Shown here: positions 35,675 to 62,689 of the stretch, piece by piece
Numbering within the stretch: the first letter of the stretch is position 1
How the letters are laid out: every line of letters begins with the position of its first letter
From: an uncultured virus (IMG/VR IMGVR_UViG_3300037847_002883)
Lineage: Duplodnaviria > Heunggongvirae > Uroviricota > Caudoviricetes
IMG/VR virus record: IMGVR_UViG_3300037847_002883
Reading direction: 5' to 3' (one strand)
Length of the DNA: 64,000 nt
Translations under genes and position numbers: made by a program
The notes under the pieces: model-generated
What the model was told of the DNA's origin: nothing
Database searches by the model: none
The model's input: only the letters and a program-made list of their open reading frames with translations

Positions 35675-36509
35675 CCTTCTTCCTCCGCTTCTTTCTACCT
35701 CTTACCACCTTATTAAACATAGCGGGGGCAGAACCCGTAGTGATTGCACCCGCCATTTTAAGTTCATTGTCATCAAATTCAGGCTTTCTGTCTTGTCTTG
35801 CAGATAACCATAATTTCTTAAAGAAATTTCTATGCTCTTCACCATATCTCTTTACCCAAGAAACATAATCACTTGGGTCTATTTCTTTGCTAAAAGTATC
35901 ATAGGGTTTTTGAGTTCTAGCCGTCACTTCAAGTCTTGCTAGTTTATTCTTAATTTTATCTTTAGTTCTGGTATCAACTTTTAAATTATCTGTTATGACT
36001 TCAGCAAATGCTACGAATTTCTTTGTCTCTTCAATAGACTCTTTTCCAACTCTGCCTTTAACTCCTAACATCATTTCTAATGGAGGAGGAATAACTTGTG
36101 TTTCAGTAGCAGGATGGTCTAAATATGTTTTTAGCCTGTAAAAAATATTGTCAGGGAATTGTCCAGTAAATGCCCCATATTCTTTTGCTGCAGAATCCAT
36201 AGGTAATTGCTCAAAGCCCATACCAGCATGAGTCGCTTCATGCATAATTGCTCTAACAACATATTCCATAATTTCTCTTTCTGTTGGTTCTCTCTTCAAC
36301 TTATTTTTAAGATAACGGTAAATTGTATGATGGTTGATTCTTATTTCTTCATCAACGAGTTCTTTTAAGTCAGGACGCTTTCCTTGCATAATCATATCAA
36401 ATATTTTACTAGTATTGATAGGCTTACCTGATATGGCATAATGCCCAAACCCTTGAGTGGTTGAATCAAAGTCAATATCTTCCACTTTAAGAATATCAAA
36501 CCAGCCCAT
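35667..36509 (-). CDS. Putative zincin metallopeptidase (HExxH), paralog of 26650 ORF, N-terminal WxxILK
   Basis: MGWFDILKVEDIDF; AIMHEATHAGM...KEYGAF. Confidence 0.6.
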   Translation of the reverse strand: MGWFDILKVEDIDFDSTTQGFGHYAISGKPINTSKIFDMIMQGKRPDLKELVDEEIRINHHTIYRYLKNKLKREPTEREIMEYVVRAIMHEATHAGMGFEQLPMDSAAKEYGAFTGQFPDNIFYRLKTYLDHPATETQVIPPPLEMMLGVKGRVGKESIEETKKFVAFAEVITDNLKVDTRTKDKIKNKLARLEVTARTQKPYDTFSKEIDPSDYVSWVKRYGEEHRNFFKKLWLSARQDRKPEFDDNELKMAGAITTGSAPAMFNKVVRGRKKRRKKDE

Positions 36510-36511
36510 AA

Positions 36512-36679
36512 TCAATCCTCCTGTCTCATTGGGCAACTTGGGCTAAATGGTGGTGCTGGCAGACTTAATGGACATTTTTCATATTTAACGACCATTTGCT
36601 GACAACGGCGACAATAGCCTGTCTTTTGAACACGGCTCGCCGCATCTCTTTCGTCAAACTTGACGATTTCTTTCCACAT
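36512..36679 (-). CDS. Small Cys-rich protein, N-terminal WxxIVK
   Basis: MWKEIVKF...CRRC...C...C. Confidence 0.55.
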   Translation of the reverse strand: MWKEIVKFDERDAASRVQKTGYCRRCQQMVVKYEKCPLSLPAPPFSPSCPMRQED

Positions 36680-36680
36680 C

Positions 36681-36887
36681 TCAATCTTTCCGAGTAAATG
36701 GATTTTTAGACTTAGGCTTCTTTTTAGCATCTTTAGCCGCTTCTTTCATTGACTCGGTTTTGTTTCCATCACCGTCAATGTCTATGTAATCGGGCTTTGC
36801 CGCTTTTAGTTCTTCATCATCGTCAGTCTTTTCAGTCCCACAATGTGCCTTTTCGTCTTCTTTCCTAATAATGTCTCTCCAACTCAT
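36681..36887 (-). CDS. Small protein with DxDGDG loop, N-terminal WxxIIRK
   Basis: MSWRDIIRK...PDYIDIDGDGN. Confidence 0.6.
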   Translation of the reverse strand: MSWRDIIRKEDEKAHCGTEKTDDDEELKAAKPDYIDIDGDGNKTESMKEAAKDAKKKPKSKNPFTRKD

Positions 36888-36991
36888 TTCTTCTCACCTG
36901 TTATTAAGTCTTTCTTTTGTTTTTCTTCTTCTTTATCTAAACGCTTTGATTCAGCATCAAACCATGAATCTAAATAAGTGCATCTTGTCAT
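36884..36991 (-). CDS. Tiny hypothetical protein (35 aa)
   Basis: Own translation MTRCTYLDSWFDAESKR...; GGAG SD; ATGA overlap. Confidence 0.45.
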   Translation of the reverse strand: MTRCTYLDSWFDAESKRLDKEEEKQKKDLITGEKK

Positions 36992-37029
36992 GTTAATTTC
37001 TCCAAAAATTTTTGGCGGAATTTTTTTTA

Positions 37030-37338
37030 CTAGTAATCTTCAGACCTTTGCACATAGCCTCTCACAGCAAGTTGATAACGATGTAATAATTTAATCAACT
37101 CATCAGGAGAAACATCAATTCGCTTAGAATTTGGGCCAATAATTTCATTGTGAAGTTTAACTGCTGATTCTAAAATATTAGTTCCTACCCTTTGAAGGTC
37201 TTTATGCAAGTCTAGCATTTTTCCAGCAATATCAAACTCAACAAACCTTTCTGCAGAAAGAGCATTTGAAGTAGTAATCTCCATGTCGTCCTCGTCATCT
37301 ACAAATCTCATGTTTTTCCTAATCTCATCTTTCCACAT
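37030..37338 (-). CDS. Hypothetical protein (MWKDEIRK)
   Basis: ORF with AGGTGA SD. Confidence 0.6.
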   Translation of the reverse strand: MWKDEIRKNMRFVDDEDDMEITTSNALSAERFVEFDIAGKMLDLHKDLQRVGTNILESAVKLHNEIIGPNSKRIDVSPDELIKLLHRYQLAVRGYVQRSEDY

Positions 37339-37342
37339 AATA

Positions 37343-37750
37343 TCACCTTTTTCTTCTATATACGGTTAATGCGCCACCCATATCTAATTCGTTATAGACG
37401 GGCATTCCTTTGTAGCGTTCCTCAACATATTGTGGTTTAGCCCTAATATCAGAGAAGGAAGACCACGCTTCGTCTTTATCCAAATCAAGTTCAGTTTCAA
37501 GATTAGGAAGTAATTGGAAGTTTTTGTAAGGAATGATTTTATATTTTCCTGAACTAACATATTTATATAAGGCATGGATAGTATGCATATGTGTTATTCT
37601 ATTTTCAAAAAGAACATATTTAGGCCAACCATCAACATCAAAATTATTCTCAACATCGGCTATCCCCTCTCTATCAATAGGAACCATTTCAATTCTTTTA
37701 GGAGGATTAATCTCCACAGGGTCTTCTTTAAGAATTTCTTTCCAACTCAT
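37343..37750 (-). CDS. Hypothetical protein, N-terminal WxxILK
   Basis: MSWKEILKE, AGGTGA SD. Confidence 0.6.
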   Translation of the reverse strand: MSWKEILKEDPVEINPPKRIEMVPIDREGIADVENNFDVDGWPKYVLFENRITHMHTIHALYKYVSSGKYKIIPYKNFQLLPNLETELDLDKDEAWSSFSDIRAKPQYVEERYKGMPVYNELDMGGALTVYRRKR

Positions 37751-37943
37751 CTTAATCACCTAAAAATTCTCAAAATTTGGCTCGGAATTTTTTTGCCACT
37801 TGCGCCCTCATTTAAATTTTATGAATTGTATTCCCAGGATAAAAACTTCTGCTTCAAAGTAGTTCATTTAAAGATAATGAGTTTGGCCGCCGTGTAAAAA
37901 TGTTGTTATAACTAATCGGATTATCATAATTAATTTAATTATT

Positions 37944-38171
37944 TTAATTGCCAAAGTCTGTTAAACTAGTTTGTTTATCGTATCTATTAATAAAATCATT
38001 AATATGGCTTTTAACTGTTTGTAGTTTCTGGCCTATTTCCCCTAGTTTAGTAATATCGGCTATACTCATATTCTTCATTTGTTTGCGTTTAGCCTTCATT
38101 TCAGATAAAATCGCGACAATCTCTTTATTGATACCCTGTAATAGTTCTAATGCCTTATCCTCACTAGACAT
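37944..38171 (-). CDS. Small helical hypothetical protein
   Basis: 75 aa, ends QTSLTDF (PIP-box-like). Confidence 0.5.
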   Translation of the reverse strand: MSSEDKALELLQGINKEIVAILSEMKAKRKQMKNMSIADITKLGEIGQKLQTVKSHINDFINRYDKQTSLTDFGN

Positions 38172-38677
38172 CCTGTATCATGTAATGGGAGTAGGCCATA
38201 CCCTATAATGGTGGCGGTTTTAGCCTTGTTTAATTAAAGTTAATGCTTCAAAGAGGGGCTTTTAAAGCCTTTCGCTCTAGATGAGAAGAAATAAAAAATT
38301 TGAAACAAAGCCATATGGTTGTAGATTATGAATGCGGGAACGGTTGTTAATAACTACCATTTTCATCTATTGTCTTATTTTCATCTTCCTCTACGGTTTG
38401 CTATAGAACGCTATTGGTAACTACAAAATGTTTGTTTACAGCCATCTATGATGAATAACCATCTAAGTGCAGCAACCCTAAATGATAGTTATTAAAAACA
38501 TTACAACCATATGGTGATGCTTTGCTATAACCCCCAAGTGGGACGGGAAGAATTACCTCTTTTCTTCCCGCCCCCGTATCTCCCTCTATTCCCTGTTTGT
38601 TTGGGTCATAGTGCCATGACGAGAGGCTCATGGCTAACGGGCCGTTTTGGGGTGCTACGGACTTCATGCCGCATTGT

Positions 38678-38887
38678 TTAATCGTATAGGCCAGCCAAAG
38701 CCCATTGATATTCTTCTTCCCATTGTCGCTTGTATTCATCAAGGAAATAGGCAAAGAAGCGACGAGAGGAGAAATTAGGGTTATCTCGCTGGAACATATC
38801 GGAAACGGCTTCAACGGTGGCTTGGCTCACATCAAAGACTTCTGCGAGGGTTTCAGCCATTTTCTTGTAGTGTCGTCGTTGGAACAT
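38678..38887 (-). CDS. Cassette gene, hypothetical (69 aa)
   Basis: MFQRRHYKKMAE...DNPNFSSRRF; TATA-like AAAACCTTATAT about 25 bp upstream (leaderless). Confidence 0.65.
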   Translation of the reverse strand: MFQRRHYKKMAETLAEVFDVSQATVEAVSDMFQRDNPNFSSRRFFAYFLDEYKRQWEEEYQWALAGLYD

Positions 38888-39001
38888 GATTAACCGCTTG
38901 ATAAGCGGATATAAGGTTTTATTACCAAAGTATGCAACCATATGGTAATTGCTTTGGTTTTACCTCAAGCAGTTTAGACCCATGCTTAGGGGTATTTAGG
39001 C

Positions 39002-39268
39002 TTAGATTACCTTAGAAGCGGCCCAGACCTCAAGTTTTTGGATTTCTTCAGTTTGTAGGCCACGGTTAGAAGTCGGGTTAGGGAAACCGTGAATCTCCCG
39101 ATAGTCGCGCAAACCAAAACGACGGTTCAAGTTATTCTTCGCGTATAGTCGCATTTTCTGGAATCTGTTGAAGTGTTGGTTAGAGTAGCCCAACCCATTG
39201 ATTTCGTTCAAACAGAACTCTTCTCCGCTTATCTTGCATACCCCAGTAACTGTCTTTTCTTTTGACAT
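39002..39268 (-). CDS. Cassette gene, hypothetical (88 aa)
   Basis: Between sites 3 and 4; TATA-like element about 25 bp upstream. Confidence 0.6.
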   Translation of the reverse strand: MSKEKTVTGVCKISGEEFCLNEINGLGYSNQHFNRFQKMRLYAKNNLNRRFGLRDYREIHGFPNPTSNRGLQTEEIQKLEVWAASKVI

Positions 39269-39383
39269 GATACTTCTTAAATTAGTAATATATTAGGGTT
39301 TTATTCAAAGTATCAAACCATATGGTTAGGCTTTGCATTAACCCCATATAGGGGCTTCACAGGGGAAAAAGCCGTGAAGAGTA

Positions 39384-39899
39384 TCATTCCTCCTCGGAAA
39401 CCTCCATATCTGCTTTCACAGGGGTTGGAACGATTTGTGGCACACCGTCTTTGACGGCGAGGCCATCCCAACGGTTTTCCTTGATTGCCTTAACCATGTA
39501 GGTATGAGCCTTACCACGGAAAGAATCAACCAATTCGCTGAAGGAGCCATAAACCCCGCCAGTTCGTCCGTGTGGCACGATAACCGACAGAATCAAGTCG
39601 TGATACTCAGTAGGGATTGTGGCAATAGCACCTGCCACGGTTTCCTCCACAGTCGCCAAAACAAGTTCCTGTTCGTCCGAAAGCGTGGATTCTCGCCCTC
39701 GTCGTGCCGCAGGAAAACCCTCCATAGTGGAGCCAATTGAACGAATAGCCGTCCAATAGGTGCTTCGTAGTTCATCAGTTCCCGCATTATCGCCCAAAGT
39801 GAGCGAAAGGAGAACAGCGTTCAAATTGTCGCTTGGTTCCTGTGTTTCGGCCCAAGCCCGCACTTTGTTTGTGTTCAATGTCCAATTCTTCATCTTCAT
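39384..39899 (-). CDS. Cassette gene, paralog family A copy 1
   Basis: MKMKNW...DELRSTYWTAIRSIGS...FPAARRGRES...PHGRTGG...RWDG; GAGGTGA SD. Confidence 0.8.
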   Translation of the reverse strand: MKMKNWTLNTNKVRAWAETQEPSDNLNAVLLSLTLGDNAGTDELRSTYWTAIRSIGSTMEGFPAARRGRESTLSDEQELVLATVEETVAGAIATIPTEYHDLILSVIVPHGRTGGVYGSFSELVDSFRGKAHTYMVKAIKENRWDGLAVKDGVPQIVPTPVKADMEVSEEE

Positions 39900-40064
39900 T
39901 TTTTTCACCTCTTTCCTAAAAAAGATACTCCGCGTCGTTTTTCCCCTGTGGAGCAATAACCCACGCAGGTTGGCGTATAAGGTTGTTTCTACGCAAAGCG
40001 ATAAACAACCATATGGTATTGCTTTGTTTATACCCTAAACAATACACCAACAAAAGAATAGGGC

Positions 40065-40313
40065 ATGAACAACCACCAAGCAACCGCGATTATGAATCTT
40101 ATTGCAGAAACCTTTCCAAGCCTTATCCCGTGGCTTGAAGGACAATACATGAAAGCCGTTTTTAAGGATATGACGCTCTATGCCGATGAACCACACGCTA
40201 TGATTGGATTAGCGGAATTTGCCGCCAGCATTGAGGCTTTTGCTGATGCTATCGCTGAAGCCTCACTTGAAGAGATGTTTCACCTTATGGCTGATATGAT
40301 GGGAGGTGCTTGA
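40065..40313 (+). CDS. Cassette gene, hypothetical (82 aa)
   Basis: Between sites 5 and 6. Confidence 0.6.
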   Translation: MNNHQATAIMNLIAETFPSLIPWLEGQYMKAVFKDMTLYADEPHAMIGLAEFAASIEAFADAIAEASLEEMFHLMADMMGGA

Positions 40314-40315
40314 GT

Positions 40316-40480
40316 ATGAGAATTTCACATTGTCCGACCTGCGGCACAGAATTGGCTAAGGATGATTTCATGTCCTTCGCTTTCATCTTAGGAGGCAACA
40401 TTTGCCGCCATTGTCTTGAGGACGACCCTTCGGGGTCAAAAGAACAAAGCATGACCATATGGTTGTGCTTTGCCAGTTGA
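40316..40480 (+). CDS. Small Zn-finger protein (54 aa) reading through palindromic site 6
   Basis: Own translation MRISHCPTCG...CRHC...; GGAGGTG SD. Confidence 0.5.
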   Translation: MRISHCPTCGTELAKDDFMSFAFILGGNICRHCLEDDPSGSKEQSMTIWLCFAS

Positions 40481-40526
40481 AAACGAAACCCCGCCGCTAA
40501 GCGGGGCTGCGAGGGGAAAACCCGCA

Positions 40527-41033
40527 TCATTCCTCTTCTTGACCTCCTTCAGCCGATTTCACGGCAGGTGGGGTCAATGCTGGGATTTCACCGTTCATGG
40601 TTCCATCCCAACGACCTTCTTTGTAGCCCTTAACGAGAGCGTCATAGGCCTTTTTGCCCATTGACTGAGCAAATGCCATAACATCGTCAAATGCGCCACC
40701 AGTTCGCCCATGAGGGAGAATAACGGTGGTGATGAGGTCAGGGTTAGTAATGCCCGCAAAGGCAGTAATAACCGCATTCTTCACAGAAGTAGCATTTAGG
40801 TCTACTTCTTCGGGCAAAGACGATTCTCGGCCTCGGCGGGCGGCTGGGAAATCATCATAAGGACTCCCAATTGAGCGAATAGCCGTCCAGTAAGTAGACC
40901 GCAATTCATCGCTATCCGTTGCATTTCCAAGTGTAATAGACAAAGAAATGGCTTGACCCACTTCTCCCCTATCTTCACGCTCAAGCCACGCTTGAACGGC
41001 ATTTGTGTTCTTAATCCAGTTATCTTGCTTCAT
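40527..41033 (-). CDS. Cassette gene, paralog family A copy 2
   Basis: Shares DELRSTYWTAIRSIGS, FPAARRGRES, PHGRTGG, RWDG with 39384 gene; GGAGG SD. Confidence 0.8.
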   Translation of the reverse strand: MKQDNWIKNTNAVQAWLEREDRGEVGQAISLSITLGNATDSDELRSTYWTAIRSIGSPYDDFPAARRGRESSLPEEVDLNATSVKNAVITAFAGITNPDLITTVILPHGRTGGAFDDVMAFAQSMGKKAYDALVKGYKEGRWDGTMNGEIPALTPPAVKSAEGGQEEE

Positions 41034-41202
41034 AATCAATTCCTCCAAAAAGGTTTGATGCGTCCGTTTTCCCCTCGGAGCAACCAACGGCGACCATAGG
41101 CGACTATGGTTGCTTTTTCATTAAACACTCGCAAAGCGAAAAGCAACCATATGGTAGGACTTTGGAAGTAGCCAAGCATAACCACCAATCAAGAGGATAA
41201 CC

Positions 41203-41496
41203 ATGCAAAGCGTGTTCGTCGTCCAAACCAATGAAATGCCTCTCTCCCGAAATCCCGATTGGAAAACTCAACTCCAATTCGGAATCTTCCGCCGTCGTGA
41301 AGATGCCGAGAAAACCATGTTCAATGTCATGGCTCGCAAAATGCGAGACGGAATTGATGAGATTCGTGAAATGACCTCCACCAAGCGAGGCAAGGGCAAA
41401 GCCGCCTACAATGCCAAAGTCTACGAAATCACCGAGGAAATCCCACGCTCAATTCGTGTTCACGAAATCCGTGTTTTGCCTGTCAGGGGTTTCTGA
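41203..41496 (+). CDS. Cassette gene, hypothetical (97 aa)
   Basis: GAGG SD; between sites 7 and 8. Confidence 0.65.
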   Translation: MQSVFVVQTNEMPLSRNPDWKTQLQFGIFRRREDAEKTMFNVMARKMRDGIDEIREMTSTKRGKGKAAYNAKVYEITEEIPRSIRVHEIRVLPVRGF

Positions 41497-41504
41497 CCTT
41501 GACG

Positions 41505-41523
41505 GGGGCTTCGGCCCCCTTTT
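41505..41523 (+). terminator. Hairpin-T terminator
   Basis: GGGGC-TTCG-GCCCC followed by CTTTT. Confidence 0.6.
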
Positions 41524-41643
41524 AGCTAAAACAAAGTATTACCATATGGTATTGTTTCTTTGTTATAAATACCCTCCAAAATTCAAATCTTGAGGTTTAG
41601 GATTTAAATCAATAAGTTAGGAGCATACCCACTTAGGAAGAAC

Positions 41644-41778
41644 ATGAAAGAAGCATACGAAGAAGTCAAGTGGTGGTATGAATTCGCTATGGGCCTAATG
41701 GAAGTCTGTCAAAAGAATTACCTCCATGCGGAGGTGCAAGAGGTGTTAAGTCGCCTTTGCGGGAGTGAGGAAGAATGA
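41644..41778 (+). CDS. Cassette gene, tiny hypothetical (44 aa)
   Basis: Own translation MKEAYEEVKWWYEF...GSEEE. Confidence 0.4.
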   Translation: MKEAYEEVKWWYEFAMGLMEVCQKNYLHAEVQEVLSRLCGSEEE

Positions 41779-41869
41779 AAAGATGACCGATAACCCCTTC
41801 AAATACCCATTATATGGGAGCGTTGGGGTGAATAACAAAGCATTACCATATGGTTGTTGTTATGCTTTG

Positions 41870-42378
41870 CACTAATCAAATAACCATAAGTGAAACGCCG
41901 CCTACTCCATGCATATGAGACTCACTCCGATACTTTGTTTCTTCGTCAAGAATTGGCGCGCCAATAAATGATTACTTGTTGCTTTCTCGCCTTACTGCTC
42001 TGTGTTTCGGCTTTGTTTCACTATGGTTTTATGGCCACTAATAGCCATAGGAATGTGAAAGGGTGGGATGAAGAATTGGGTATCTCCAAGACTGGAGCGA
42101 TTGGGTCGCTCTCACTAATTGGTGCTCCTTTGGTTTCTTAAGAGCCAGTCTGCTGATTTTACGAACATGGTTAGTAGCCATGCGCCTTTTGAGCCTTAAT
42201 CGCTTTCACAGGGAACAAATAATCTATGCTACTCAGCCGTCATATCTGCTATGTGTCCCACTACAGGAAAAATCACACCTTACCCCCACCAACAAGGGTA
42301 TTCGGTCAATCCCCTCCGAGGGGAGCGACCCCCCGAAGCAATAGAACCGAGCGATTATCGCTTATGGTTCTCCATGTG
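41870..42378 (+). ncRNA. Candidate about 500-nt structured non-coding RNA cassette
   Basis: No credible ORF; closing stem AACCATAAGTGA/TCGCTTATGGTT and many internal hairpins; G-U pairs favour + strand. Confidence 0.4.
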
Positions 42379-42448
42379 CAAAGCAATATAGAACCATATG
42401 GTTTTACTTTGGTAAAACCCCTCAGCAATTGCTTCACAGGGGGGATAA

Positions 42449-42811
42449 TCACCATTCATCCCTTGGGTTGAAATAAGTGTGCCTTCCCCTATCATCGGAG
42501 ACAAAAGAGCCGCCCCAACCCATTTCATATGAGCGAGTTCGCATTTCGGCGTTGTCCTCGTCAATTCGGTCTTGAATATCCTTGTCGGTATAATGGAACG
42601 GTTTGTGCTCTGCTGCGTATTCCTTCCAAATTGGGAGAATCTCGTCCAAGTCGTCCTTTTCCATCATTTCGGAAGAAACATCGGCCTTCTCCCAAAAGGT
42701 TTCATAGATGGTATCTTCGCAGAAGAAATACCTAACTCCTTCCATGTCCCTCACCCATCGGTTTTCATCGTCTGTTTTCTCAGTCAGCCATTTGTAAAAA
42801 GATTTTGCCAT
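42449..42811 (-). CDS. Cassette gene, acidic hypothetical (120 aa)
   Basis: GGAGGT SD; between sites 10 and 11. Confidence 0.65.
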   Translation of the reverse strand: MAKSFYKWLTEKTDDENRWVRDMEGVRYFFCEDTIYETFWEKADVSSEMMEKDDLDEILPIWKEYAAEHKPFHYTDKDIQDRIDEDNAEMRTRSYEMGWGGSFVSDDRGRHTYFNPRDEW

Positions 42812-43009
42812 TTTTCAACCTCCAGCGAAAAATTGACGGTAGCGGGCGATTAAGGTATTATTTATTCAAAGTAAATAATACCATATGGTTTGAATAAATC
42901 AAAGAGCGCAGAATGTTCTTATTTAGCCATATTCAAACACGCTGAAACGGGGAGGATTTTCAGCCCCCAAAAATCCGTCAAATTTGACAGGGTGTTTCTC
43001 AACTGTGGT

Positions 43010-43365
43010 TATATTAATTCGTATTCATATTCTAATATTCAATATTAGTATTATAGTAAAATAAATCGGTTGTCTCATGGTTGGGAGGGGATGAGACGAG
43101 ACAACACACGGAAGAATCATCAAGGTTATGCAACATAAGTAAAAATATATTTCTATTATCTCATTATCTCATCATCTCATCATCATCATCACTACTACTA
43201 CACACAACCCCTTATTTTCTTAGGGGTATGGAGAGAGAAAGATTCCCCTTTTGTGATGAGACGAGACGAGACAACTATTTTTTGCGTGTTTCCACAAGGT
43301 TCTAGGGGGTTGTGTTGCATAACCCCATCGTCTCAAGATGAGACAACAGGCGAGACAGTCTCATG
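43010..43365. repeat. AT-rich tract plus GAGAC/ATGAGACAAC iterated repeats; candidate replication origin or packaging site
   Basis: Repeats at 43070 (inverted), 43091, 43255, 43337, 43351; (ATC)n/(CTA)n run; at strand switch. Confidence 0.45.
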
Positions 43366-43550
43366 CACATGGCAATCAAAGTTATTTCAATGGGCAAACT
43401 ATTGTTGAAAATAAAATCTATTTGATTCAACAAACGGATTAATTTATCATTTAAGTTAAAATGTAAAAGTGAAAAAGGGCCGTAGAAACTAGGGGTGCTT
43501 GTGAAAAAGTTAGTGATTCCCTCAAGGGAGGTGCATTCGGAGGCATTTCT

Positions 43551-43566
43551 GGACTCCTTTATATAC
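43551..43566 (+). promoter_or_regulatory. TATA promoter GGACTCCTTTATATAC
   Basis: Identical 16-mer at 52208. Confidence 0.7.
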
Positions 43567-43615
43567 CGAAAGGCAACTGTTGAAAATACCCCGCAAAGGG
43601 GAAGGAGAGATATAC

Positions 43616-44089
43616 ATGGATGATACCACATGGGAAAGCCTCAAAATTGAGGTGAACGAATACCTTGAAGCCGACACCACGCTTGATGCAGGATTGCGTC
43701 AAGTCGTTGAATTGAACCTGCAAATCGGGACGAACAACCCCGATGAGCGAACTGCCGCCGAAGGTGCGCTTAAAGCACTTTTGAAGGGCCGTGATGGAAC
43801 CCCGTTCCGCCGAGGCCAAAAGAGCGCAGTTCCAGCCGCAGTTCGTGTTTCAATTGACCGAATCTGTGGAGTTGTTGAAGAAGCCGCTATTGGCTACTAC
43901 AACCACGATGCAGTTATTGGTGCAATTACCATGAAGCACATCAAATCTGGTGGCGGTGCTTACGATGGCGCAGAAGATTACGCTTCTGCCGTTGTGAAGA
44001 GAACCCGAAACAACCTTGGCAAGATGTTCAAGGACGGTTCTTGGGATGGTAGCGTTGATTCCCTTTTAGGCGAATCAAGCGACCTTTGA
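43616..44089 (+). CDS. Paralog family A copy 3 (divergent)
   Basis: W..L...V..YLE, RRGQKS, H...GGGAYD, FKDGSWDG align with 39384/40527 genes. Confidence 0.7.
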   Translation: MDDTTWESLKIEVNEYLEADTTLDAGLRQVVELNLQIGTNNPDERTAAEGALKALLKGRDGTPFRRGQKSAVPAAVRVSIDRICGVVEEAAIGYYNHDAVIGAITMKHIKSGGGAYDGAEDYASAVVKRTRNNLGKMFKDGSWDGSVDSLLGESSDL

Positions 44090-44136
44090 AGTTAATTCTT
44101 CAAACCCGCACAATTCCAGTTCTCTGAACTGAACAA

Positions 44137-44176
44137 CGGGGAATAGGGAGCCAAGGCTCCTTATTCTCCCTTTTTT
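44137..44176 (+). terminator. Hairpin-T terminator
   Basis: GGGGAATAGGGAGCC/GGCTCCTTATTCTCC then T6. Confidence 0.6.
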
Positions 44177-44249
44177 CCACAAGGGGAAAGAGAGGGGCTG
44201 AGAGGGGCTTTCGGGCCTCACCTCTCTTTCCCCGCCTTTGGGTGGTTAA

Positions 44250-44507
44250 ATGCGATTAGTAGAAGAAGTCTTTGTTAAGGCTAAAGAGGATTTAATTTGT
44301 CAATCCTGCGGTGTTGATATACCGAAGGATAGCAACCATCTTCTTGAGTCTTATGTTCATCATGGCGTTATTTCAACTAGTCATTACTGTTTAAACCCAA
44401 AGTGCAATCCACCAAATAATGTTCGTTTGAAGTTATTTTGGGGAACAATAGCCATAGGCGTTTCTCTGTGGCTAATTTACTTTTTCTATCAAAACGCAGG
44501 GTTTTAA
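44250..44507 (+). CDS. Zn-finger protein with C-terminal TM helix
   Basis: CQSC...HYC...C; hydrophobic tail. Confidence 0.55.
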   Translation: MRLVEEVFVKAKEDLICQSCGVDIPKDSNHLLESYVHHGVISTSHYCLNPKCNPPNNVRLKLFWGTIAIGVSLWLIYFFYQNAGF

Positions 44508-44648
44508 GTCTATTCGCTTAGGCGACCCGTGGCGGCGTGGCATATACGCCCTCGGCAGGTGGGGGTATGCTTGAACAGTCGCCAAGCGACTTCATTTCAC
44601 TTTTACAATTTGAAATGGTGTGGCTTTTCTTCTGTTTGAGTAATTCAC

Positions 44649-44733
44649 GCTGAGATGGCTGAGTTTGGTTAAAAGCGCAGGGCTTAAACTCCTGTCCGTA
44701 TATGGTTCGCAGGTTCAAATCCTGCTCTCAGCA
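44649..44733 (+). tRNA. tRNA-Leu(UAA)
   Basis: Acceptor GCTGAGA/TCTCAGC, anticodon loop CT-TAA-AC, long variable arm, GGTTCAAATCC T-arm. Confidence 0.88.
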
Positions 44734-44742
44734 TCTTTTCAC

Positions 44743-44817
44743 GGAACGGTAGCACAGTCTGGTTAGTGCGCCAGTCTCATAAACTGGTGGTCGCAAGTTC
44801 AAATCTTGCCCGTTCCA
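44743..44817 (+). tRNA. tRNA with CAU anticodon (elongator Met or Ile2)
   Basis: Acceptor GGAACGG/CCGTTCC, CCAGT-CTCATAA-ACTGG, GTTCAAATC. Confidence 0.88.
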
Positions 44818-44918
44818 TTTTACATGGGGAAGGTTGAACAGGGGGCTAAAGAGTAATGACCGAGCAATCGGTTTTGTTCCCTTCCCCGCCTATTCCACAT
44901 TTTTAAGAGGTAATAAAA

Positions 44919-46346
44919 ATGAAACATACAAATGAACAAATCGCAATCTTTGATTGCATAGAAAACACAGAAGACCACCTAATTATTAATGCAGGTGCAG
45001 GAACAGGGAAAACGACAACGATTGTTGAAGCAGCAAATCGTATCAATGGACAGAAAGCCGCATTCTTGGCTTTCAATAAGTCTATTGCTACTGAATTAGC
45101 AGAAAGACTTCCAACCGATGTGGAAGCGAAAACCTTCCACGCTTTCGGATTCGCTGCGATTCGTGCGGCTGGTGTTAAAACAAAGGTGAACAATTTTAAG
45201 GTCAATAACATTATTAAAGACCTTCATGGTGCTGATTTCTATGTCGCTCCACTAAAGAAACTTGTTTCTCTCGTTAAGGGAAGTATGGTTGATGGAACCG
45301 ACAAAAAGGCAATTAACCAACTGATTGATGAATACAATATCAACTTCAATTCTGACCGTGAAGAACGAATTGCAGTAGAATCAATACCTGCAATTCTCAC
45401 GATGTGCCGAACACAGACTCATATCATTGATTTTGATGACATGATTTGGATGCCCATTGTTAATGGCTATCCTTTCCCAAAATATGATGTTTTGTTTGTT
45501 GATGAAGCACAGGATTTTAACGAAGTGCAACGAGAAATGATTTCTTTGTGCGTCAATGGTGGCCGTTGTATTATTGTCGGTGATAAAAACCAAGCAATTT
45601 ACGGTTTCCGTGGTGCTGATTCAAACTCAATTGCCATGTTCCGACAACGACTTCTCAAGGGTGAGAGAAAAATCAGCGAATTTCCTCTCTCAATTACTTG
45701 GCGTTGTCCTAAATCGGTTGTTCGTGAGGCCAACCGATATGTGCGTGAGTTTAATGCTCCTGATTTTGCCGAAGAAGGCACAGTTATTGTAGATGCTCCG
45801 TTCAATCCACAACGAAATGATATGGTTCTTTGCCGATACAATGCTCCTTTGGTGTCTGCTTTCTATGATTTGATTTCACAGGGCAAATCGGCTTATGTTC
45901 TTGGTCGTGATATGACGAAGGGTTTAATTACCGCCGTTCAAAAGATTTCTAAGAACAACCACATGGGCGTTGAAGAGTTCACGCAGTTATTCCAAAAAGA
46001 CTTTGCTTACAACTATCAACGACTTCTTGACCAAAACAAAGAGAATCAAGCGATGGCTCTTGAAGATAAGCGTGATTGTATTATGATTTTCGTCAAGAAA
46101 GCAACGACTGTTGGTGGAATCATTGAAGAGATTAAGCGTGTCTTTGATGGAAATGATGAAGGTGAAATCATGCTTTCAACTGTTCACAAGGCTAAAGGTC
46201 TTGAAGCAGACAATGTTTATATTCTCGCAACTGAGCGAATGCCTCATCCATACGGTAGTTTGGAAGAGAACAACATTTGCTATGTAGCGATTACACGGGC
46301 CAAAAAGAATTTGTTCTATTGTGGCCCAAAACCAGGAAAAATTTGA
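44919..46346 (+). CDS. Superfamily 1 UvrD/Rep-like helicase
   Basis: AGAGTGKTT, VDEAQD, GDKNQAIYGFRG, STVHKAKGLE, YVAITRAK. Confidence 0.92.
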   Translation: MKHTNEQIAIFDCIENTEDHLIINAGAGTGKTTTIVEAANRINGQKAAFLAFNKSIATELAERLPTDVEAKTFHAFGFAAIRAAGVKTKVNNFKVNNIIKDLHGADFYVAPLKKLVSLVKGSMVDGTDKKAINQLIDEYNINFNSDREERIAVESIPAILTMCRTQTHIIDFDDMIWMPIVNGYPFPKYDVLFVDEAQDFNEVQREMISLCVNGGRCIIVGDKNQAIYGFRGADSNSIAMFRQRLLKGERKISEFPLSITWRCPKSVVREANRYVREFNAPDFAEEGTVIVDAPFNPQRNDMVLCRYNAPLVSAFYDLISQGKSAYVLGRDMTKGLITAVQKISKNNHMGVEEFTQLFQKDFAYNYQRLLDQNKENQAMALEDKRDCIMIFVKKATTVGGIIEEIKRVFDGNDEGEIMLSTVHKAKGLEADNVYILATERMPHPYGSLEENNICYVAITRAKKNLFYCGPKPGKI

Positions 46347-46355
46347 GGTGAAAAA

Positions 46356-46571
46356 ATGAAATATGCAGAATTTATGAAAATTACAGATAAGTGGTCGGAC
46401 AACGACATAGTTTGTTTCTTGATGGAATATCCATTGTGGAACGAAATGGTTATGCGTTTTATTATGCATAAGTGGCGTGATGATTGCCCCATTGAATATG
46501 AAGAGATTGAATGGTATGCTAATGATAACAATATCATGGAATACACGGATTTGCCAGAGGTGGAAGAATGA
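46356..46571 (+). CDS. Hypothetical protein
   Basis: GAGGTGA SD. Confidence 0.55.
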   Translation: MKYAEFMKITDKWSDNDIVCFLMEYPLWNEMVMRFIMHKWRDDCPIEYEEIEWYANDNNIMEYTDLPEVEE

Positions 46572-50863: not shown

Positions 50864-50939
50864 GGGCGTATGGTGTAATAGGATAGCATTTTGGCCTTCT
50901 AAGCCGAAGATTCGGGTTCAAATCCTGATACGCCCGCCA
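50864..50939 (+). tRNA. tRNA-Arg(UCU)
   Basis: Acceptor GGGCGTA/TACGCCC, loop CT-TCT-AA, GGTTCAAATCC, encoded CCA. Confidence 0.9.
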
Positions 50940-55316: not shown

Positions 55317-56474
55317 ATGAAACTAAGAATTAAAAAACCAGATGATAGTAATGATTATTTTGAAACGAACATTACTTGTGCTACCTATAATTTTAGAGAA
55401 GTTATGACGGTTAGTTATCTGCGAAGTGCTAAAGACCCAATTCAAGCAGGATTGGAAGCCTTTTGGAAAGATATTATTTCTCCTAGAAAATCAAGGAGAA
55501 CCTATTATAATGGCTTTGGATATAACTTTCATCATATTGTTTTTATTGAAGGTTGTCCTATCGTTCTTTCAAGAGAAGGCATTCGTTATCAACTGAATGG
55601 TAAATCATACAGCCTTGCGACTATTTGTTCTGCTTTAGCAAGAATTACTTACAAATCATGTTTTGAGAAGAAGCCAGACGCTTTATTGTCTGCTTTGTAT
55701 GCTACACTTAATTTACCAGAGAATGTCAAATATTGTATTGAAAATCGTGCGCCATTTCATTTCTTCCAAGACTTTGAGAAGCAAGATGTTCGTTTGAATG
55801 TCGTTCAAATTGATGATAAGATGCTCGCTATGGAAATCAGCGATGGTGTTTGGGGTGAAATAACTCCGAAGCAACTTGACTCTTACTGTAATTTCTATGT
55901 TCATGGTAAGCGAAGAGGCTCATGGAAGTATCTTTCTCCTAAATCCCTATATACTAGGTTGATGGGTCGTGAACCAACGGAGGCTGAATTGAAAGTGATG
56001 GTCGCCTTTTTGATGCAGAACAGAATGCAAGACATTGTGGATGCAAGAGCATTAGAATTAGTGGCTGATATGTTGGTTCAACACAAAGGCCGACTATCTG
56101 CTGAATATGACAATGATGGGGTTCTAACAAATCTCTTCGTTAGAGGTAAAGATTATGATTGGCAATTGACAAATAATCGCTATAAGTCTGGTATTCAAAT
56201 GGTTTCAACCTATGTCTGGCAACCAGTCTTAGAAGTCATTAGAGATGAAGATGATGTTAAAATCATCAAGGAAAAGAAAATGTCCGAACCAGATTGGCGT
56301 GGCCCAATTTGTATTGATAATATGGCTGATGGCTCTCCATTAGGCGACCAATTCGCCGCAAGAGCGTTAGCCCTTCTTAACGACTCCTTTACAATAACAA
56401 TAGTGAATACGATTAAGCGGTATCTTGCCGCCGAACCAAATGAATATAGGATTGATAATGATGATTTGCGATGA
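55317..56474 (+). CDS. Hypothetical protein; C-terminus possibly E2-like (GPICID)
   Basis: 385 aa; WRGPICIDN resembles E2 active-site G-x-I-C-L-D. Confidence 0.4.
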   Translation: MKLRIKKPDDSNDYFETNITCATYNFREVMTVSYLRSAKDPIQAGLEAFWKDIISPRKSRRTYYNGFGYNFHHIVFIEGCPIVLSREGIRYQLNGKSYSLATICSALARITYKSCFEKKPDALLSALYATLNLPENVKYCIENRAPFHFFQDFEKQDVRLNVVQIDDKMLAMEISDGVWGEITPKQLDSYCNFYVHGKRRGSWKYLSPKSLYTRLMGREPTEAELKVMVAFLMQNRMQDIVDARALELVADMLVQHKGRLSAEYDNDGVLTNLFVRGKDYDWQLTNNRYKSGIQMVSTYVWQPVLEVIRDEDDVKIIKEKKMSEPDWRGPICIDNMADGSPLGDQFAARALALLNDSFTITIVNTIKRYLAAEPNEYRIDNDDLR

Positions 56475-57318
56475 ATGTGGTAGCAACAATAACTCATTTG
56501 ATGAGATACAAGGCGAAAGAATTTGTAATGACTGTGGGCTTATCTTAGTCCAAGAGATGTTTGAAGAAACCGTTCACATTTTAGATACGGGCGGGAACCT
56601 CAAACATTCTGCTGATAAAGGCAGATTAGGTTCTGTTATTACAGGTAAAGGTTCTTACAAGTTTAATAAGTTCGGTAAGAATAGCGTAATTCCTCAGCAT
56701 ATTCAAAATGCTCTAATGCATTGTAATATGATTTTGGCTCATGTTGCTCCTAATTTGGGATTGAATGAGCGTGTTGAGAAACTGTATCTTGATTTACATA
56801 GTAAGGGCGTATTCGGAAGAAGTCAAATTGAAGCAAGAGCAACAGCAGTTGTCTTTTATGCTTTGAGAGAGAATGGAACGCCACATACCTTTGCAGAAGT
56901 TTCTGCTGAATTTGATGCTAACTTAAAATCAGTTAAGAGATTAGTTAGAAAGATTAACCAAGTCTTTAGAAACAAAGCAGGTTATAGTCCTGTTAATCCA
57001 CAGTATCTTTTAGAGAAAACTCTCAATGATATTACCGATGATTTGGTGTTTAGGAGACAAACTATCAAGGTGTTGGAGTTCTTTGAAACAAAGGTAGCGC
57101 AAAATACCTTCAACAAGGGAAGGTCATATTATGCTTCTATTATTTGGATTTCAGCAAACATGAATGTGAACACATTGATAACTCAAAATCTAATCACAAA
57201 GAAAACGGGGTTCTCTCGTTTCAATATTAGACGACAAACAAAAGCAATTCTATCTATGATTGGTTTAGAACTAGCCAGTCAAGTAAAAGGAAAACAATTA
57301 AGCGAACTAGGTGAATAA
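56458..57318 (+). CDS. tfb: Transcription initiation factor TFB/TFIIB-like protein
   Basis: N-terminal Zn ribbon CDECG...CNDCGLI, then cyclin-like repeats (GRSQIEARATAVVFYALR; GRSYYASIIWIS). Confidence 0.8.
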   Translation: MMICDECGSNNNSFDEIQGERICNDCGLILVQEMFEETVHILDTGGNLKHSADKGRLGSVITGKGSYKFNKFGKNSVIPQHIQNALMHCNMILAHVAPNLGLNERVEKLYLDLHSKGVFGRSQIEARATAVVFYALRENGTPHTFAEVSAEFDANLKSVKRLVRKINQVFRNKAGYSPVNPQYLLEKTLNDITDDLVFRRQTIKVLEFFETKVAQNTFNKGRSYYASIIWISANMNVNTLITQNLITKKTGFSRFNIRRQTKAILSMIGLELASQVKGKQLSELGE

Positions 57319-62480: not shown

Positions 62481-62689
62481 CAGATGAATTGGAAGTTAAA
62501 GGAACCATAGTCCGTAATGCTGAACTGGACTGTAAAATAAAGCGTGGTGTCTATTGGAATATAGAGGTCGTGGATATTCGTTGGTATCGTAATGACAAAC
62601 CAACGAATAAAGGCATTCGTTTGAATGTTGATGAAGCAAAATTGTTATTACAAATTTTAAGGAGAGAATTAGATGAAGAGAGTAAGTGA
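62468..62689 (+). CDS. PC4-like ssDNA-binding protein
   Basis: VDIRWY...KPTNKGIRL...E signature. Confidence 0.7.
   Translation: MDELTDELEVKGTIVRNAELDCKIKRGVYWNIEVVDIRWYRNDKPTNKGIRLNVDEAKLLLQILRRELDEESK

Follow-up and report, generated by a model that had tools for sequence, protein, structure and literature searches.

A palindromic composite element separates accessory-gene units in a group-B magrovirus and probably doubles as their recombination joint

PeSLs, repeats that combine a promoter with a stem-loop, are described from the hyperplastic regions of T4-type phages (Arbiol et al. 2010, PMC2839356; Comeau et al. 2014, PMC4122927). In archaeal viruses, early-gene regulatory sequences precede anti-defence genes (Bhoobalan-Chitty et al. 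2024, PMC11065993), HGTV-1 carries a motif of a TATA box plus inverted repeat for which a PeSL-like role was proposed (Sencilo et al. 2013, via PMC3950731), and intergenic repeats of HF2 carry promoters (PMC8707807). Here we analyse an array of palindromic sites in a 64,000-nucleotide stretch of viral DNA (the window), built on an element of which we found no published description in the literature. A preliminary description of the window had named integrons, shufflons and PeSLs as analogues; PeSLs fit, whereas integrons and shufflons fail in defining features.

Like PeSLs as portrayed in the papers cited, the magrovirus element is a small, repeated intergenic composite of stem-loop and, here, putative promoter, and it precedes ORFans in a variable region; in both systems, indels and replacements between close relatives are joined in the repeat, and units equipped with regulatory signals are shuffled modularly. 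The magrovirus promoter would be of TATA type because the host is an archaeon, unlike the sigma-70 -35/-10 promoter of PeSLs. Further differences are that the sequence shared among magrovirus sites is a 10-bp perfect palindrome between two hairpins rather than the promoter consensus itself, that joining is orientation-blind and inverted units are found, that each genome has one array rather than several hyperplastic regions, and that no mini-circles were seen in the contigs of four runs.

The likeness to the archaeal-virus sequences of PMC11065993 lies in the low number of small genes that lack annotation and mostly stand singly (3-12 in those genomes, 3-11 sites in magroviruses), in a separate promoter for each gene inside a virus-specific conserved sequence, and in inverted repeats, some of them interpreted as a repressor site. 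Those viruses, however, infect Sulfolobales and Thermoproteales, and the words 'magrovirus', 'Poseidoniales' and 'palindrom' are absent from the main text of that paper. The conserved part there includes the BRE/TATA core, whereas the invariant part here lies upstream of the TATA-like box; the magrovirus also has no recognised Aca-like regulator, and shuffling at its motif is prominent. HGTV-1 and HF2 are archaeal tailed viruses akin to magroviruses through their morphogenetic genes, but their motifs have other sequences, and in the sources cited neither is described with a palindromic core and twin arms. HF2 repeats are conserved in position among relatives (PMC8707807), whereas magrovirus sites mark shuffled units.

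Integron attC arrays and shufflons share with this locus an arrangement of units parted by structured, partly palindromic sites, the gain, loss and reordering of units at those sites, and an arm structure better conserved than arm sequence. They differ in that the five complete magrovirus relatives have no IntI or Rci-type recombinase and that magrovirus units have mixed orientation and apparently their own promoters. The array also lacks the attI and Pc of integrons, its sites are unrelated to R and L boxes in sequence and architecture, and its units are whole genes, not the alternative ends of one gene as in shufflons.

The window belongs to a group-B magrovirus, a tailed virus of Marine Group II archaea. 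Its left arm encodes portal, terminase, capsid and protease, and its right arm a UvrD-like helicase, RNR and a chaperonin; a complete relative also encodes split PolB, RFC, ligase and an XPF-type nuclease. RNR, split DNAP and GroEL are traits listed for group B by Philosof (2017). Ten exact copies of ACCATATGGT (starting at 38506, 38937, 39317, 40008, 40454, 41146, 41541, 41845, 42393 and 42880) and one one-mismatch copy, GCCATATGGT at 38310, lie within 38310-42889. Allowing one mismatch, the window holds 14 core matches against 1.29 +/- 1.02 expected (0 of 100 shuffles reached 14), with one-mismatch matches at 23463, 34667 and 55233 falling outside the array; for CCATATGG, the count is 12 where 0.63 would be expected. 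Core-to-core spacings are 196, 431, 380, 691, 446, 692, 395, 304, 548 and 487 bp. The region has a G+C content of 0.43-0.46, higher than its flanks, and coincides with the cumulative GC skew minimum, where the two genome arms diverge. We think it probable that the array is a hyperplastic accessory-gene region at the switch from a leftward structural arm to a rightward replication arm.

These data bear out the observations of the preliminary description: the array of palindromic sites itself, the spacing (given as 195-692 bp, measured as 196-692 bp), the strictly co-oriented flanks (minus on the left, plus on the right), the convergent genes around the sixth site (core 40454) and the content and orientation of the intervals, which run empty, -, -, -, + (two ORFs), -, +, +, non-coding, -. 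The consensus CAAAG-N-core-N-CTTTG is the usual architecture, with both flanks at 8 of 11 sites; sites 38506 and 42880 have a single flank each, and 38310 has none on the right. The interval called noncoding indeed has no protein gene and contains a manA-like structured RNA on the minus strand. The sites (S) and units are listed below, with z scores for ssDNA folding.

38310..38319, no strand: S1, degenerate outer site, CAAAG touching the core on the left; 139 nt upstream of the first left-arm gene (37944-38171, minus strand)
38506..38532, no strand: S2, core 38506-38515, right arm 38513-38532 (5/6 pairs), no left CAAAG; faces the 3' end of unit B; z 0.05, no better than shuffles
38678..38890, minus strand: unit B gene, 70 aa ORFan, ATG about 52 nt from the S3 core centre
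38915..38964, no strand: S3, core 38937-38946, arms 38915-38939 and 38944-38964, the left followed by TATA-like TTATAT and heading unit B; z -1.16
39002..39268, minus strand: unit C gene, 88 aa ORFan
39297..39343, no strand: S4, core 39317-39326, arms 39297-39319 (7/8 pairs) and 39324-39343 (5 pairs); folds as one central hairpin, z -2.18
39384..39905, minus strand: unit D gene, about 171 aa, paralogous family 1; 5' leader of about 114 nt with a GGAGG-type ribosome site
39981..40034, no strand: S5, divergent joint, core 40008-40017, left arm 39981-40010 (9/10 pairs) heading D, right arm 40015-40034 (5 pairs) heading E; twin hairpins, z -3.61
40065..40480, plus strand: unit E, with two ORFs, of 82 aa (40065-40313) and of 54 aa (40316-40480; weak zinc-ribbon-like match); S5 centre and first ATG 52 nt apart
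40434..40490, no strand: S6, convergent joint between two 3' ends, core 40454-40463, near-perfect 28-bp palindrome CAAAGCA..core..TGCTTTG; central hairpin, z -3.39
40527..41033, minus strand: unit F gene, 168 aa, family 1
41108..41183, no strand: S7, divergent joint, core 41146-41155, left arm 41108-41148 (10-bp perfect stem) heading F, weak right arm heading G; z -4.19
41203..41496, plus strand: unit G gene, ORFan of 97 aa; S7 centre and ATG 52 nt apart
41525..41573, no strand: S8, core 41541-41550, right arm 41548-41573 (6 pairs) heading H; z -1.18
41644..41778, plus strand: unit H gene, 44 aa
41827..41885, no strand: S9, convergent joint of H and RNA unit I, core 41845-41854; z -0.40
42060..42335, minus strand: unit I, manA-like structured RNA (Rfam RF01745, full model length)
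42366..42419, no strand: S10, core 42393-42402, arms 42366-42395 (6 pairs) and 42400-42419 (8 pairs); twin hairpins, z -4.97
42449..42811, minus strand: unit J gene, 120 aa ORFan
42854..42900, no strand: S11, outer site, core 42880-42889, left arm 42854-42882 (12/13 pairs) heading J, right arm degenerate, without CTTTG; z -5.38
43616..44089, plus strand: K, third family-1 paralogue, just beyond the array in the conserved right flank

Exact cores recur in five complete relatives of 94-96 kb (9, 8, 8, 8 and 5 copies), all of them in a single array of 3-4.2 kb and none elsewhere in those genomes. The full site pattern was found in at least 213 stretches on 103 IMG/VR contigs, and a scan of 185,579 prokaryote genomes returned a sole array, on one contig that is probably misbinned. 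Where the helicase is at least 63% identical, cores lie 1.5-7.2 kb upstream of it in 16 of 16 loci, one of which is near-identical to the window, leaving 15 further relatives with cores at the matching genome position, in most cases as arrays; at helicase identities of 38% or below, cores are present in 0 of 7 loci. Relative loci have from 3 to 11 sites.

Half-sites tend to form a short hairpin, GGT - CTTTG loop - ACC, with covarying stems. An anchored stem of at least 6 bp was found in 34% of 635 unique half-sites, against 5% of random GGT positions and 5% of shuffles, and in 328 of 366 the loop contained CTTTG. In a set of 56 distinct half-sites that have one geometry in common, 47 and 42 keep the pairs adjoining GGT/ACC, which vary through UA, AU, GC, CG and GU; the stem covariation score is 0.307, compared with 0.106 +/- 0.019 for shuffles (none of 500 reached it) and no more than 0.115 for slid controls. 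Stems of six or more pairs are found in 70% of start-facing halves versus 40% of end-facing ones. Pairing in the hairpins is imperfect: anchored pairs number fewer than five in 42% of half-sites, and variable stem positions are paired in only about half. As ssDNA, five of 10 window sites fold with z <= -3.3, and four of 10 fold no better than shuffles.

The element is also coupled to gene starts. Many units have their ATG about 52 nt downstream of a core centre, a TATA-like element near -26 and a pyrimidine at position -1. Of 272 units, 139 have a confident conserved frame; in these, core centre and ATG are at least about 30 nt apart, with one peak at 50-55 nt (25 units, and a further 10 at 55-60 nt) and another at 90-120 nt (56 units), whereas the distance from stop codon to the following core spreads broadly, from 36 to 460 nt. 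In 39 unique ATG-aligned upstream regions, positions -24 to -22 are A/T-only, -6 to -3 read WWWR, and 92% have a pyrimidine at -1, which suggests leaderless mRNAs; on sequence grounds, the TATA-like boxes may be promoter elements. Because units start at a fixed distance from the site with a TATA-like box between, the element would be part of the promoter region. Promoter function alone cannot account for every site, since convergent joints need no promoter: they make up 6 of the 61 joints with both sides confidently oriented, S6 included (five separate cases, one being common to the window and its close relative L215). The earlier statement that the sites are not simply promoter operators needs qualifying, given their fixed distance from unit starts. 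Pfam scans of the window and a relative found no HTH, RHH or similar families in the array or elsewhere.

Rather than keeping a fixed gene order and orientation, named beforehand as the outcome that would speak against shuffling, unit maps vary in content, order and sometimes orientation across 14 helicase-anchored loci. Relatives have gained, lost, moved and flipped whole units, with junctions in or at the 10-bp core, so that the sites hold up as boundaries of reshuffled, acquired and, more rarely, inverted units. The window unit at 40454-41155 is placed elsewhere in locus L014, with homology from core to core; in L215, whose helicase is 98% identical, unit G is missing and unit H (41541-41854) is inverted core to core. 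Seventy-nine half-site pairs have a homologous unit side and an unrelated far side; their identity stays at 0.8-1.0 as far as the core and drops to about 0.5 with the first base past it. Of 1333 HSP ends, 13.1% lie no more than 6 nt from a core centre, versus 2.1% at random, and many of the 1333 are distant from cores. A public RNA-library contig joins S3 to S4 (38935->39316) through 11 shared letters, with unit C lost, and loose contig ends begin precisely at cores 38506, 40454 and 41854. Homologous unit pairs (n=112) have the same orientation in 108 cases and the opposite in four, representing two events. The inverted unit H is only 73% identical to the window copy, which marks it as an exchanged allele and not a recent flip.

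We consider the element to be, on balance, a composite with regulatory and boundary functions that also serves as a recombination joint, PeSL-like but palindromic, and not an integron. Each transcription unit, whether it holds a structured RNA or one to two ORFan genes, would be fenced by one such element, comprising the invariant core and, on each side, a short, often imperfect, hairpin-forming inverted repeat that runs from the core GGT over a CTTTG apex to ACC. On the gene-start side, ACC leads directly into a TATA-like box with the start codon about 26 nt further, which would put the element immediately ahead of an archaeal-type promoter, in the place expected for a bound activator or repressor. 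We infer that the palindrome is recognised by a dimeric factor of viral or host origin that controls the units jointly, probably as one temporal class, and that the arms contribute to the insulation or termination of neighbouring units. Units would be joined at the core by recombination, be it between relatives infecting the same cell or inside a single genome, and this could happen in either orientation because the core is the only sequence common to unrelated units and, being palindromic, is the same on both strands. The outcome seen among relatives is that whole units, with their putative promoters, have been gained, lost, replaced, reordered and occasionally flipped. General or short-homology recombination in the manner of PeSLs is the most economical mechanism. 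The accessory genes of an abundant ocean archaeal virus would then be kept as self-contained, promoter-bearing units.

The preliminary description had instead favoured a dedicated site-specific system. An orientation-blind system of this kind, an archaeal-virus integron or shufflon to which promoter coupling is secondary, would require an unrecognised recombinase, or a palindrome-cutting nuclease plus ligase, viral or host, acting on the twin-hairpin palindrome. Homology of 10 bp is short for RadA-type recombination, and this, together with orientation-blind joining unlike that of PeSLs, leaves room for such an enzyme; the virus does encode ligases and structure-specific nucleases of XPF/ERCC4 and PD-(D/E)XK types. 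The mapping of junctions to the core, the inversion of whole units with both cores retained, the sites at convergent joints, the arm covariation, which conserves structure as in folded attC sites, and the confinement of all sites to one locus per genome, as on an integron platform, also agree with it. We nevertheless judge it unlikely and the earlier proposal unsupported. The window shows no recombinase, as had been reported, and tyrosine and serine recombinases (PF00589, PF00239) are absent from all five complete relatives in searches whose controls were positive in 14/14 and 12/14 genomes; no recombinase or transposase family was found among 129 ORFs scanned with Pfam, and the contigs of four runs contain no strand-change or circle joints. 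The rarity of inversions and the divergence of the inverted unit H also speak against it, and a fixed 52-nt distance to the start codon is unexpected for a pure recombination site.

That distance, and the constant position relative to the TATA-like box, would suit a purely regulatory operator or activator site with boundary hairpins and no part in recombination, in which selection for recombinants with intact promoter-gene-terminator units would explain the coincidence of junctions and sites. Core invariance while helicases diverge to 63% identity is as expected of a protein-binding site, and the early and anti-defence regulatory sequences (PMC11065993) and HF2 repeats (PMC8707807) offer archaeal-virus precedents. 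This reading is distinctly doubtful, however, given that homology falls at the first base past the core and not at scattered intergenic positions, that half-sites move with their unit even on inversion, that convergent joints still have sites, and that the contig with a unit deletion shares 11 letters at its joint. The location of the array at the GC-skew minimum and arm divergence would also fit replication-origin or packaging iterons (ORB-like boxes) at a genome strand-switch point, and the dyad element with a nearby C/G-string may loosely resemble archaeal origin recognition boxes. Such iterons are highly improbable here: there is a single site per intergenic boundary, the number varies from 3 to 11 among relatives, the start-codon distance is fixed, variable coding DNA lies between sites, and the region, at a G+C content above that of its flanks, is not an A+T-rich unwinding zone.

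The protein genes of the array are ORFans throughout, and the early, host-takeover or anti-defence role proposed for them in the preliminary description is conjectural. An AF2 model of the unit F protein is all-helical (pLDDT 85), and a fold search with it gave no informative match. Homologues of the unit J protein fall into 12 clusters, none named, some on contigs of about 90 kb. The unit I RNA matches RF01745 at 47.4 bits (gathering score 55.2; E 5e-11) and is kept in relatives as unit family 4.

The 10-bp palindrome ACCATATGGT, hereafter the core, is found exactly at ten places in the window (38506–42889), and the variant GCCATATGGT is found once, at 38310, giving 11 sites in all (S1–S11). 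When one mismatch is allowed, the window contains 14 matches to the core against 1.29 ± 1.02 expected, a count reached in none of 100 shuffles; three of the 14, with one mismatch each, sit outside the array. The 8-mer CCATATGG is present in 12 copies where 0.63 would be expected. The outer words CAAAG and CTTTG, placed 4–10 nt off the core, are both present at 8 of the 11 sites, while each of the two outermost exact sites has a single outer word and the copy at 38310 is degenerate. Our scan of the window and ORF map agree with the preliminary description on the spacing of the sites and on the gene content and orientation of the intervals (units B to J, between successive sites). The interval that it called noncoding has the gene content stated, but a manA-like structured RNA lies inside it on the minus strand (42060–42335; Rfam RF01745, full model length, E-value 5e-11, 47.4 bits, short of the 55.2-bit gathering score). 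RNAs of the manA family occur in marine bacteria and cyanophages, which makes a copy in an archaeal virus unexpected.

The array occupies the point at which the two arms of the genome diverge and the GC skew turns. To its left, on the minus strand, lie genes for the portal, large terminase, capsid, and protease; to its right, on the plus strand, lie genes for a UvrD-type helicase, ribonucleotide reductase, chaperonin, ThiF and JAB-like proteins, and a divergent TFB/TFIIB homologue. Outside the portion matching the window, a complete relative also encodes an ATP-dependent ligase, RFC, a split family-B polymerase, a PD-(D/E)XK nuclease, and an XPF/ERCC4 nuclease. Ribonucleotide reductase, the split polymerase, and GroEL are given as traits of group B magroviruses in the main text of Philosof et al. 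(2017; PMC5434244). The G+C content of the array (0.43–0.46) exceeds that of the left (0.35–0.37) and right (0.36–0.40) flanks. A megablast search of 36000–46500 against GenBank phages returned no match, and comparison of the array ORFs with Pfam and PHROGs returned nothing usable.

The five complete relatives compared (G002–G006, 94–96 kb) contain 9, 8, 8, 8, and 5 exact core copies, in each case all inside one array of 3–4.2 kb and none elsewhere; the motif is absent from the 35-kb fragment G001. A helicase search that was blind to the motif recovered 23 loci. Cores lie 1.5–7.2 kb upstream of the helicase in all 16 loci with helicase identity of at least 63%, one of which is 99.85% identical to the window and another of which extends only 1.8 kb upstream, and in none of the 7 loci with identity of 38% or less. 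The full gapped pattern matches at least 213 stretches on at least 103 IMG/VR contigs, many of them 90–100 kb long. One IMG/VR contig of 184,733 bp (locus L014; stretches L191 and L192) has the array pattern twice, about 97.7 kb apart, which points to two genomes concatenated in the assembly and not to a genome of double size. In a set of 185,579 prokaryote genomes (one per species), the full pattern matches 39 stretches, of which 37 are single scattered bacterial matches. The other two (L264 and L265) form a 5-site array, the only array in this set, on a 14.7-kb contig that was binned to a flavobacterial MAG and is probably a misbinned magrovirus. We rejected the idea of a host regulon, as the full-pattern matches in these genomes are scattered and none is titled Poseidoniales.

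A repeated composite element fences every unit of one variable locus, and it is also the place where the units of relatives are joined. Unit maps of 14 helicase-anchored loci vary in content and order even at 95–98% helicase identity. Between the window and L014, a relative's locus with a helicase 90% identical at the protein level, homologous blocks start or stop at cores, and the unit at 40454–41155 is homologous from core to core in L014, where it occupies another position. We compiled 79 half-site pairs in which the unit side is homologous and the far side unrelated; identity in these pairs is 0.8–1.0 up to the core and about 0.5 at the first base past it. Moreover, 13.1% of internal blastn HSP ends (n = 1333) lie no more than 6 nt from a core centre, compared with 2.1% at random, and the remaining ends mostly reflect divergence.

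Units can also differ in orientation. Unit H (41541–41854) is inverted core to core in L215, a locus with a 98% identical helicase; both half-sites have been carried along, its neighbours in L215 being F and I, and unit G is missing from that locus. Because unit H is only 73% identical between the window and L215, its inversion represents an exchanged allele and not a fresh flip. An F-type unit is likewise inverted in L229. Overall, homologous unit pairs have the same orientation in 108 of 112 cases and the opposite orientation in 4, which represent two events. Contigs assembled from public runs contain further joints: in one, S3 and S4 are joined with 11 shared letters and unit C is lost, and in a second the end of the S7 core is joined to the start of the S10 core. 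Loose contig ends from public runs start exactly at the cores at 38506, 40454, and 41854. No strand-change or go-back joint appears among the joints listed for contigs of four runs, although contigs drop rare variants. Where both sides of a joint could be confidently oriented (n = 61), 43 joints are tandem, 12 divergent, and 6 convergent, one of the convergent joints being common to the window and L215. Even convergent joints, which call for no promoter, have a site; this fits units being joined at cores whichever way they face.

The composite element stands in a fixed spatial relation to gene starts. Cutting 50 non-redundant arrays at each core yielded 272 units, for which we took the best-conserved tblastx frame as the coding strand; 139 units were confident, and the other 133 were dropped for want of a confident frame. 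In these 139 units the start codon never lies closer than about 30 nt to the core centre, and the distance is sharply bimodal, with 35 units at 50–60 nt (25 of them at 50–55 nt) and 56 at 90–120 nt, the latter mostly family-1 units (see below) with long leaders. The distance from the stop codon to the next core is broad (36–460 nt). The ATG codons of the window lie 52–55 nt from the core centre in units B, C, E, and G, 74 nt in J, 98 nt in H, and 114–118 nt in D and F.

Alignment at the ATG of 39 unique upstream regions from the short class places the TTT of CTTTG at -42 to -40, solely A/T at -24 to -22, WWWR at -6 to -3, and a pyrimidine at -1 in 92% of regions. Judged from sequence, this pattern is what a leaderless start with an archaeal TATA box some 26 nt ahead of it would give, and the element would accordingly sit upstream of a BRE/TATA promoter that mostly yields leaderless mRNAs. 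A -35/-10 pair is not what the conserved upstream part shows, and sigma-70-like matches (16 against 8.6 ± 2.6 expected) are not aligned with the sites. RNA-library contigs touch units D, F, and I, and the one in F stops at 41081, close to where the TATA-like box would place the start; another, with a depth of 356, touches 42159–42218 in the manA-like RNA. We do not take these contigs as evidence of transcription, since contigs cannot show RNA ends and the libraries may include DNA.

Outward from the core, a half-site tends to consist of GGT and variable bases, a CTTTG apex, and the complementary bases followed by ACC. Anchored stems of at least 6 pairs are found in 34% of 635 unique half-sites, compared with 5% of random GGT positions and 5% of shuffled sequences, and stems of at least 5 pairs in 58%, compared with 16–18% in controls; CTTTG lies inside the loop in 328 of 366. 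In a covariation set of 56 distinct half-sites sharing one fixed geometry, the two variable pairs adjoining GGT/ACC are kept in 47 and 42 half-sites through six pair types, and the third pair in 27. The covariation score of 0.307 exceeds that of shuffled partners (0.106 ± 0.019, with none of 500 as high) and of slid partners (at most 0.115). Stems are stronger in the halves of a site that face a gene start: with two mismatches allowed, at least 6 pairs form in 70% of start-facing halves vs 40% of end-facing halves. When the sites are folded as single-stranded DNA, twin hairpins form at S5, S7, S10, and S11 (z -3.6 to -5.4) and a single core-centred hairpin forms at S4 and S6 (z -2.2 and -3.4, respectively), while S2, S3, S8, and S9 fold no better than shuffles. 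The arm structure is therefore real as a tendency but imperfect, and it is possibly two-state. Mismatch types in the stems (G·T vs A·C, 20 vs 13 in start-facing and 14 vs 6 in end-facing halves) do not discriminate between action in DNA and in RNA. Arms that lie between divergent promoters would escape transcription from those promoters, and for this reason we lean towards action in DNA.

Tyrosine recombinases (PF00589) and serine recombinases (PF00239) were each found in none of the five complete relatives, with controls positive (in 14 of 14 genomes for PF00589), and PF00589 had no match in the window ORFs or in the rest of G002. The earlier observation that no recombinase is visible in the window holds when Pfam is applied to its ORFs; among 129 ORFs, Pfam found no recombinase, transposase, or classical DNA-binding family. 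Neither an Aca-like regulator nor any DNA-binding family was recognised in the array ORFs. Only one unit family, family 1, recurs in every array examined, with three paralogues per genome.

Family 1 paralogues in the window (about 170 aa, all-helical, with conserved GFPxARRGR and PHGRTGG motifs)
39384–39905, minus strand: family 1 paralogue (unit D)
40527–41033, minus strand: family 1 paralogue (unit F)
43616–44089, plus strand: family 1 paralogue (gene K, just outside the array)

The AF2 model of family 1 is confident and all-helical, and Foldseek found no match to it in the PDB at E ≤ 0.001. A wide VIA-align search gave generic three-helix-bundle matches only (best Z 8.5 over 59 residues), the matches in BFVD were two viral proteins, both unnamed, the family profile matched only designed helical proteins among PDB sequences, and the protein Atlas gave no usable match. 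The divergent TFB/TFIIB homologue (56425–57318, plus strand) matches NCBIfam PRK00423 over residues 78–283 (E-value 3.5e-10), the Pfam TFIIB zinc ribbon (1.8e-5), and TFIIB in the PDB (1e-3). This ORF occurs in all five array-bearing complete relatives and in none of five distant array-less records, a difference confounded by relatedness, and we regard it purely as a lead to a reader of virus-specific promoters or of the site. The main text of Philosof et al. (PMC5434244) makes no mention of a TFB homologue. The core contains CATATG, yet 21 copies lie outside the sites against 16.3 expected window-wide, and we discarded the idea of a restriction site.

As in integrons, units are gained, lost, and reordered with junctions at the sites. 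However, an integron has an IntI-type tyrosine recombinase beside its array, and none was found in the window or in the five complete relatives. The attC site is a single imperfect hairpin with conserved R''/L''-L'/R' boxes, whereas the magrovirus site, unrelated in sequence, consists of a perfect palindrome of 10 bp with a short GGT...CTTTG...ACC hairpin on either side. Integron cassettes are mostly promoterless, in one orientation, and served by a common Pc; the magrovirus units have mixed orientations, and each has its own TATA-like box at a fixed distance from the ATG. Shufflons and invertase switches depend on an Rci- or Hin-type recombinase, neither family of which was detected. With no such recombinase in any of the five complete relatives, units that seem equipped with promoters, and an unrelated site, the array is neither an integron nor a shufflon. 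ORB-type origins have an A+T-rich unwinding element with a small number of inverted boxes around it; we also rejected an archaeal replication origin, given 3–11 sites, one per gene boundary, across 2–4.6 kb of coding DNA that is G+C-richer than its flanks.

The promoter-early stem-loops (PeSLs) of T4-type phages are a closer likeness. There too a repeated intergenic composite of promoter (putative in our case) and stem-loop precedes ORFans in a variable region, and indels and replacements between close relatives are joined in the motif. In the accounts of T4-type phages drawn on here (PMC2839356, PMC4122927), PeSLs recombine as the only shared sequences of a hyperplastic region. Excised mini-circles are a further trait of PeSLs. 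The magrovirus element is not a member of the PeSL family, because it lacks the sigma-70-type -35/-10 early promoter, the virus genes being archaeal-type; also unlike a PeSL, its palindromic joint admits either orientation. A further likeness is to an early/anti-defence regulon of archaeal viruses, in which a virus-specific conserved sequence, set around a strong promoter, precedes several small single genes, as one with a predicted promoter does in the array; the regulon is described as having immediate-early expression and an Aca-like regulator (PMC11065993). Promoter-associated repeats are also described in HGTV-1 (a repeated motif, PMC3950731) and HF2 (intergenic repeats, PMC8707807), as are regulatory sequences of early and anti-defence genes in archaeal viruses (PMC11065993); none of these accounts concerns magroviruses or the palindrome element. 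The element was not found described in the main texts of PMC5434244, PMC11706807, PMC10160649, and PMC11065993. As a text string, ACCATATGGT appears, among the matches listed, in literature on unrelated animal, bacterial, and cell-biology subjects.

By analogy with PeSLs, the most economical model is that recombination between the sole shared sequences joins the units, with a palindromic joint that would let a unit enter in either orientation; a dimeric regulator may bind the element, and the arms may insulate the units from one another. The alternative is a dedicated, orientation-blind recombination system acting on the twin-hairpin palindrome, with which magroviruses would cut out, take up, and invert gene and RNA units together with their promoters. 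Its enzyme might be a recombinase that has escaped recognition, or else a nuclease that cuts palindromes and whose self-complementary ends are sealed by one of the viral ligases. In its favour, 10 bp is little homology for recombination, structure is conserved in the arms, and the sites occur at a single locus; we nonetheless consider it improbable. Were it true, archaeal viruses would possess an integron-like platform for gene capture, built on enzymes of a family that has so far not been connected with site-specific recombination. The array shows that the shuffling of promoter-equipped units (with predicted promoters here), as known from T4-type phages, takes place in archaeal tailed viruses too.

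Of the viruses that infect Marine Group II archaea, magroviruses rank with the most abundant; to our knowledge neither they nor their hosts have been cultured. The element offers a sequence handle on what may be regulated accessory genes (candidates for an early, host-takeover, or anti-defence role) as well as on one structured RNA, and the motif, which marks at least 103 IMG/VR contigs, can help to locate accessory units in metagenomes and set their limits. Moreover, the 42-bp element could serve as DNA bait in a search for a transcription regulator or recombination enzyme, which would be the first from this virus–host system.

Additional features of the genome were noted. The stretch 42890–43580, between the last site and K, is conserved (83% identical in L014) without a convincing ORF and has no Rfam match; it includes a trinucleotide-like low-complexity run near 43140–43200. 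Genes for tRNA-Leu(TAA) and tRNA-Met(CAT) lie just upstream of the helicase (44649–44817, plus strand), and a gene for tRNA-Arg(TCT) lies further right (50864–50939, plus strand). Each genome has two ATP-dependent DNA ligase domains, the first within a 993-aa protein of the structural arm (window 10087–13068, minus strand) and the second in a conventional ligase of 515 aa (G002 L276:2333–3877, plus strand). A PC4-like single-strand-binding domain is encoded at 62468–62686 (plus strand; E-value 4.6e-5). Finally, the ThiF-family and JAB-like proteins (57656–58213 and 59256–59840, plus strand) suggest a ubiquitin-like modifier system.
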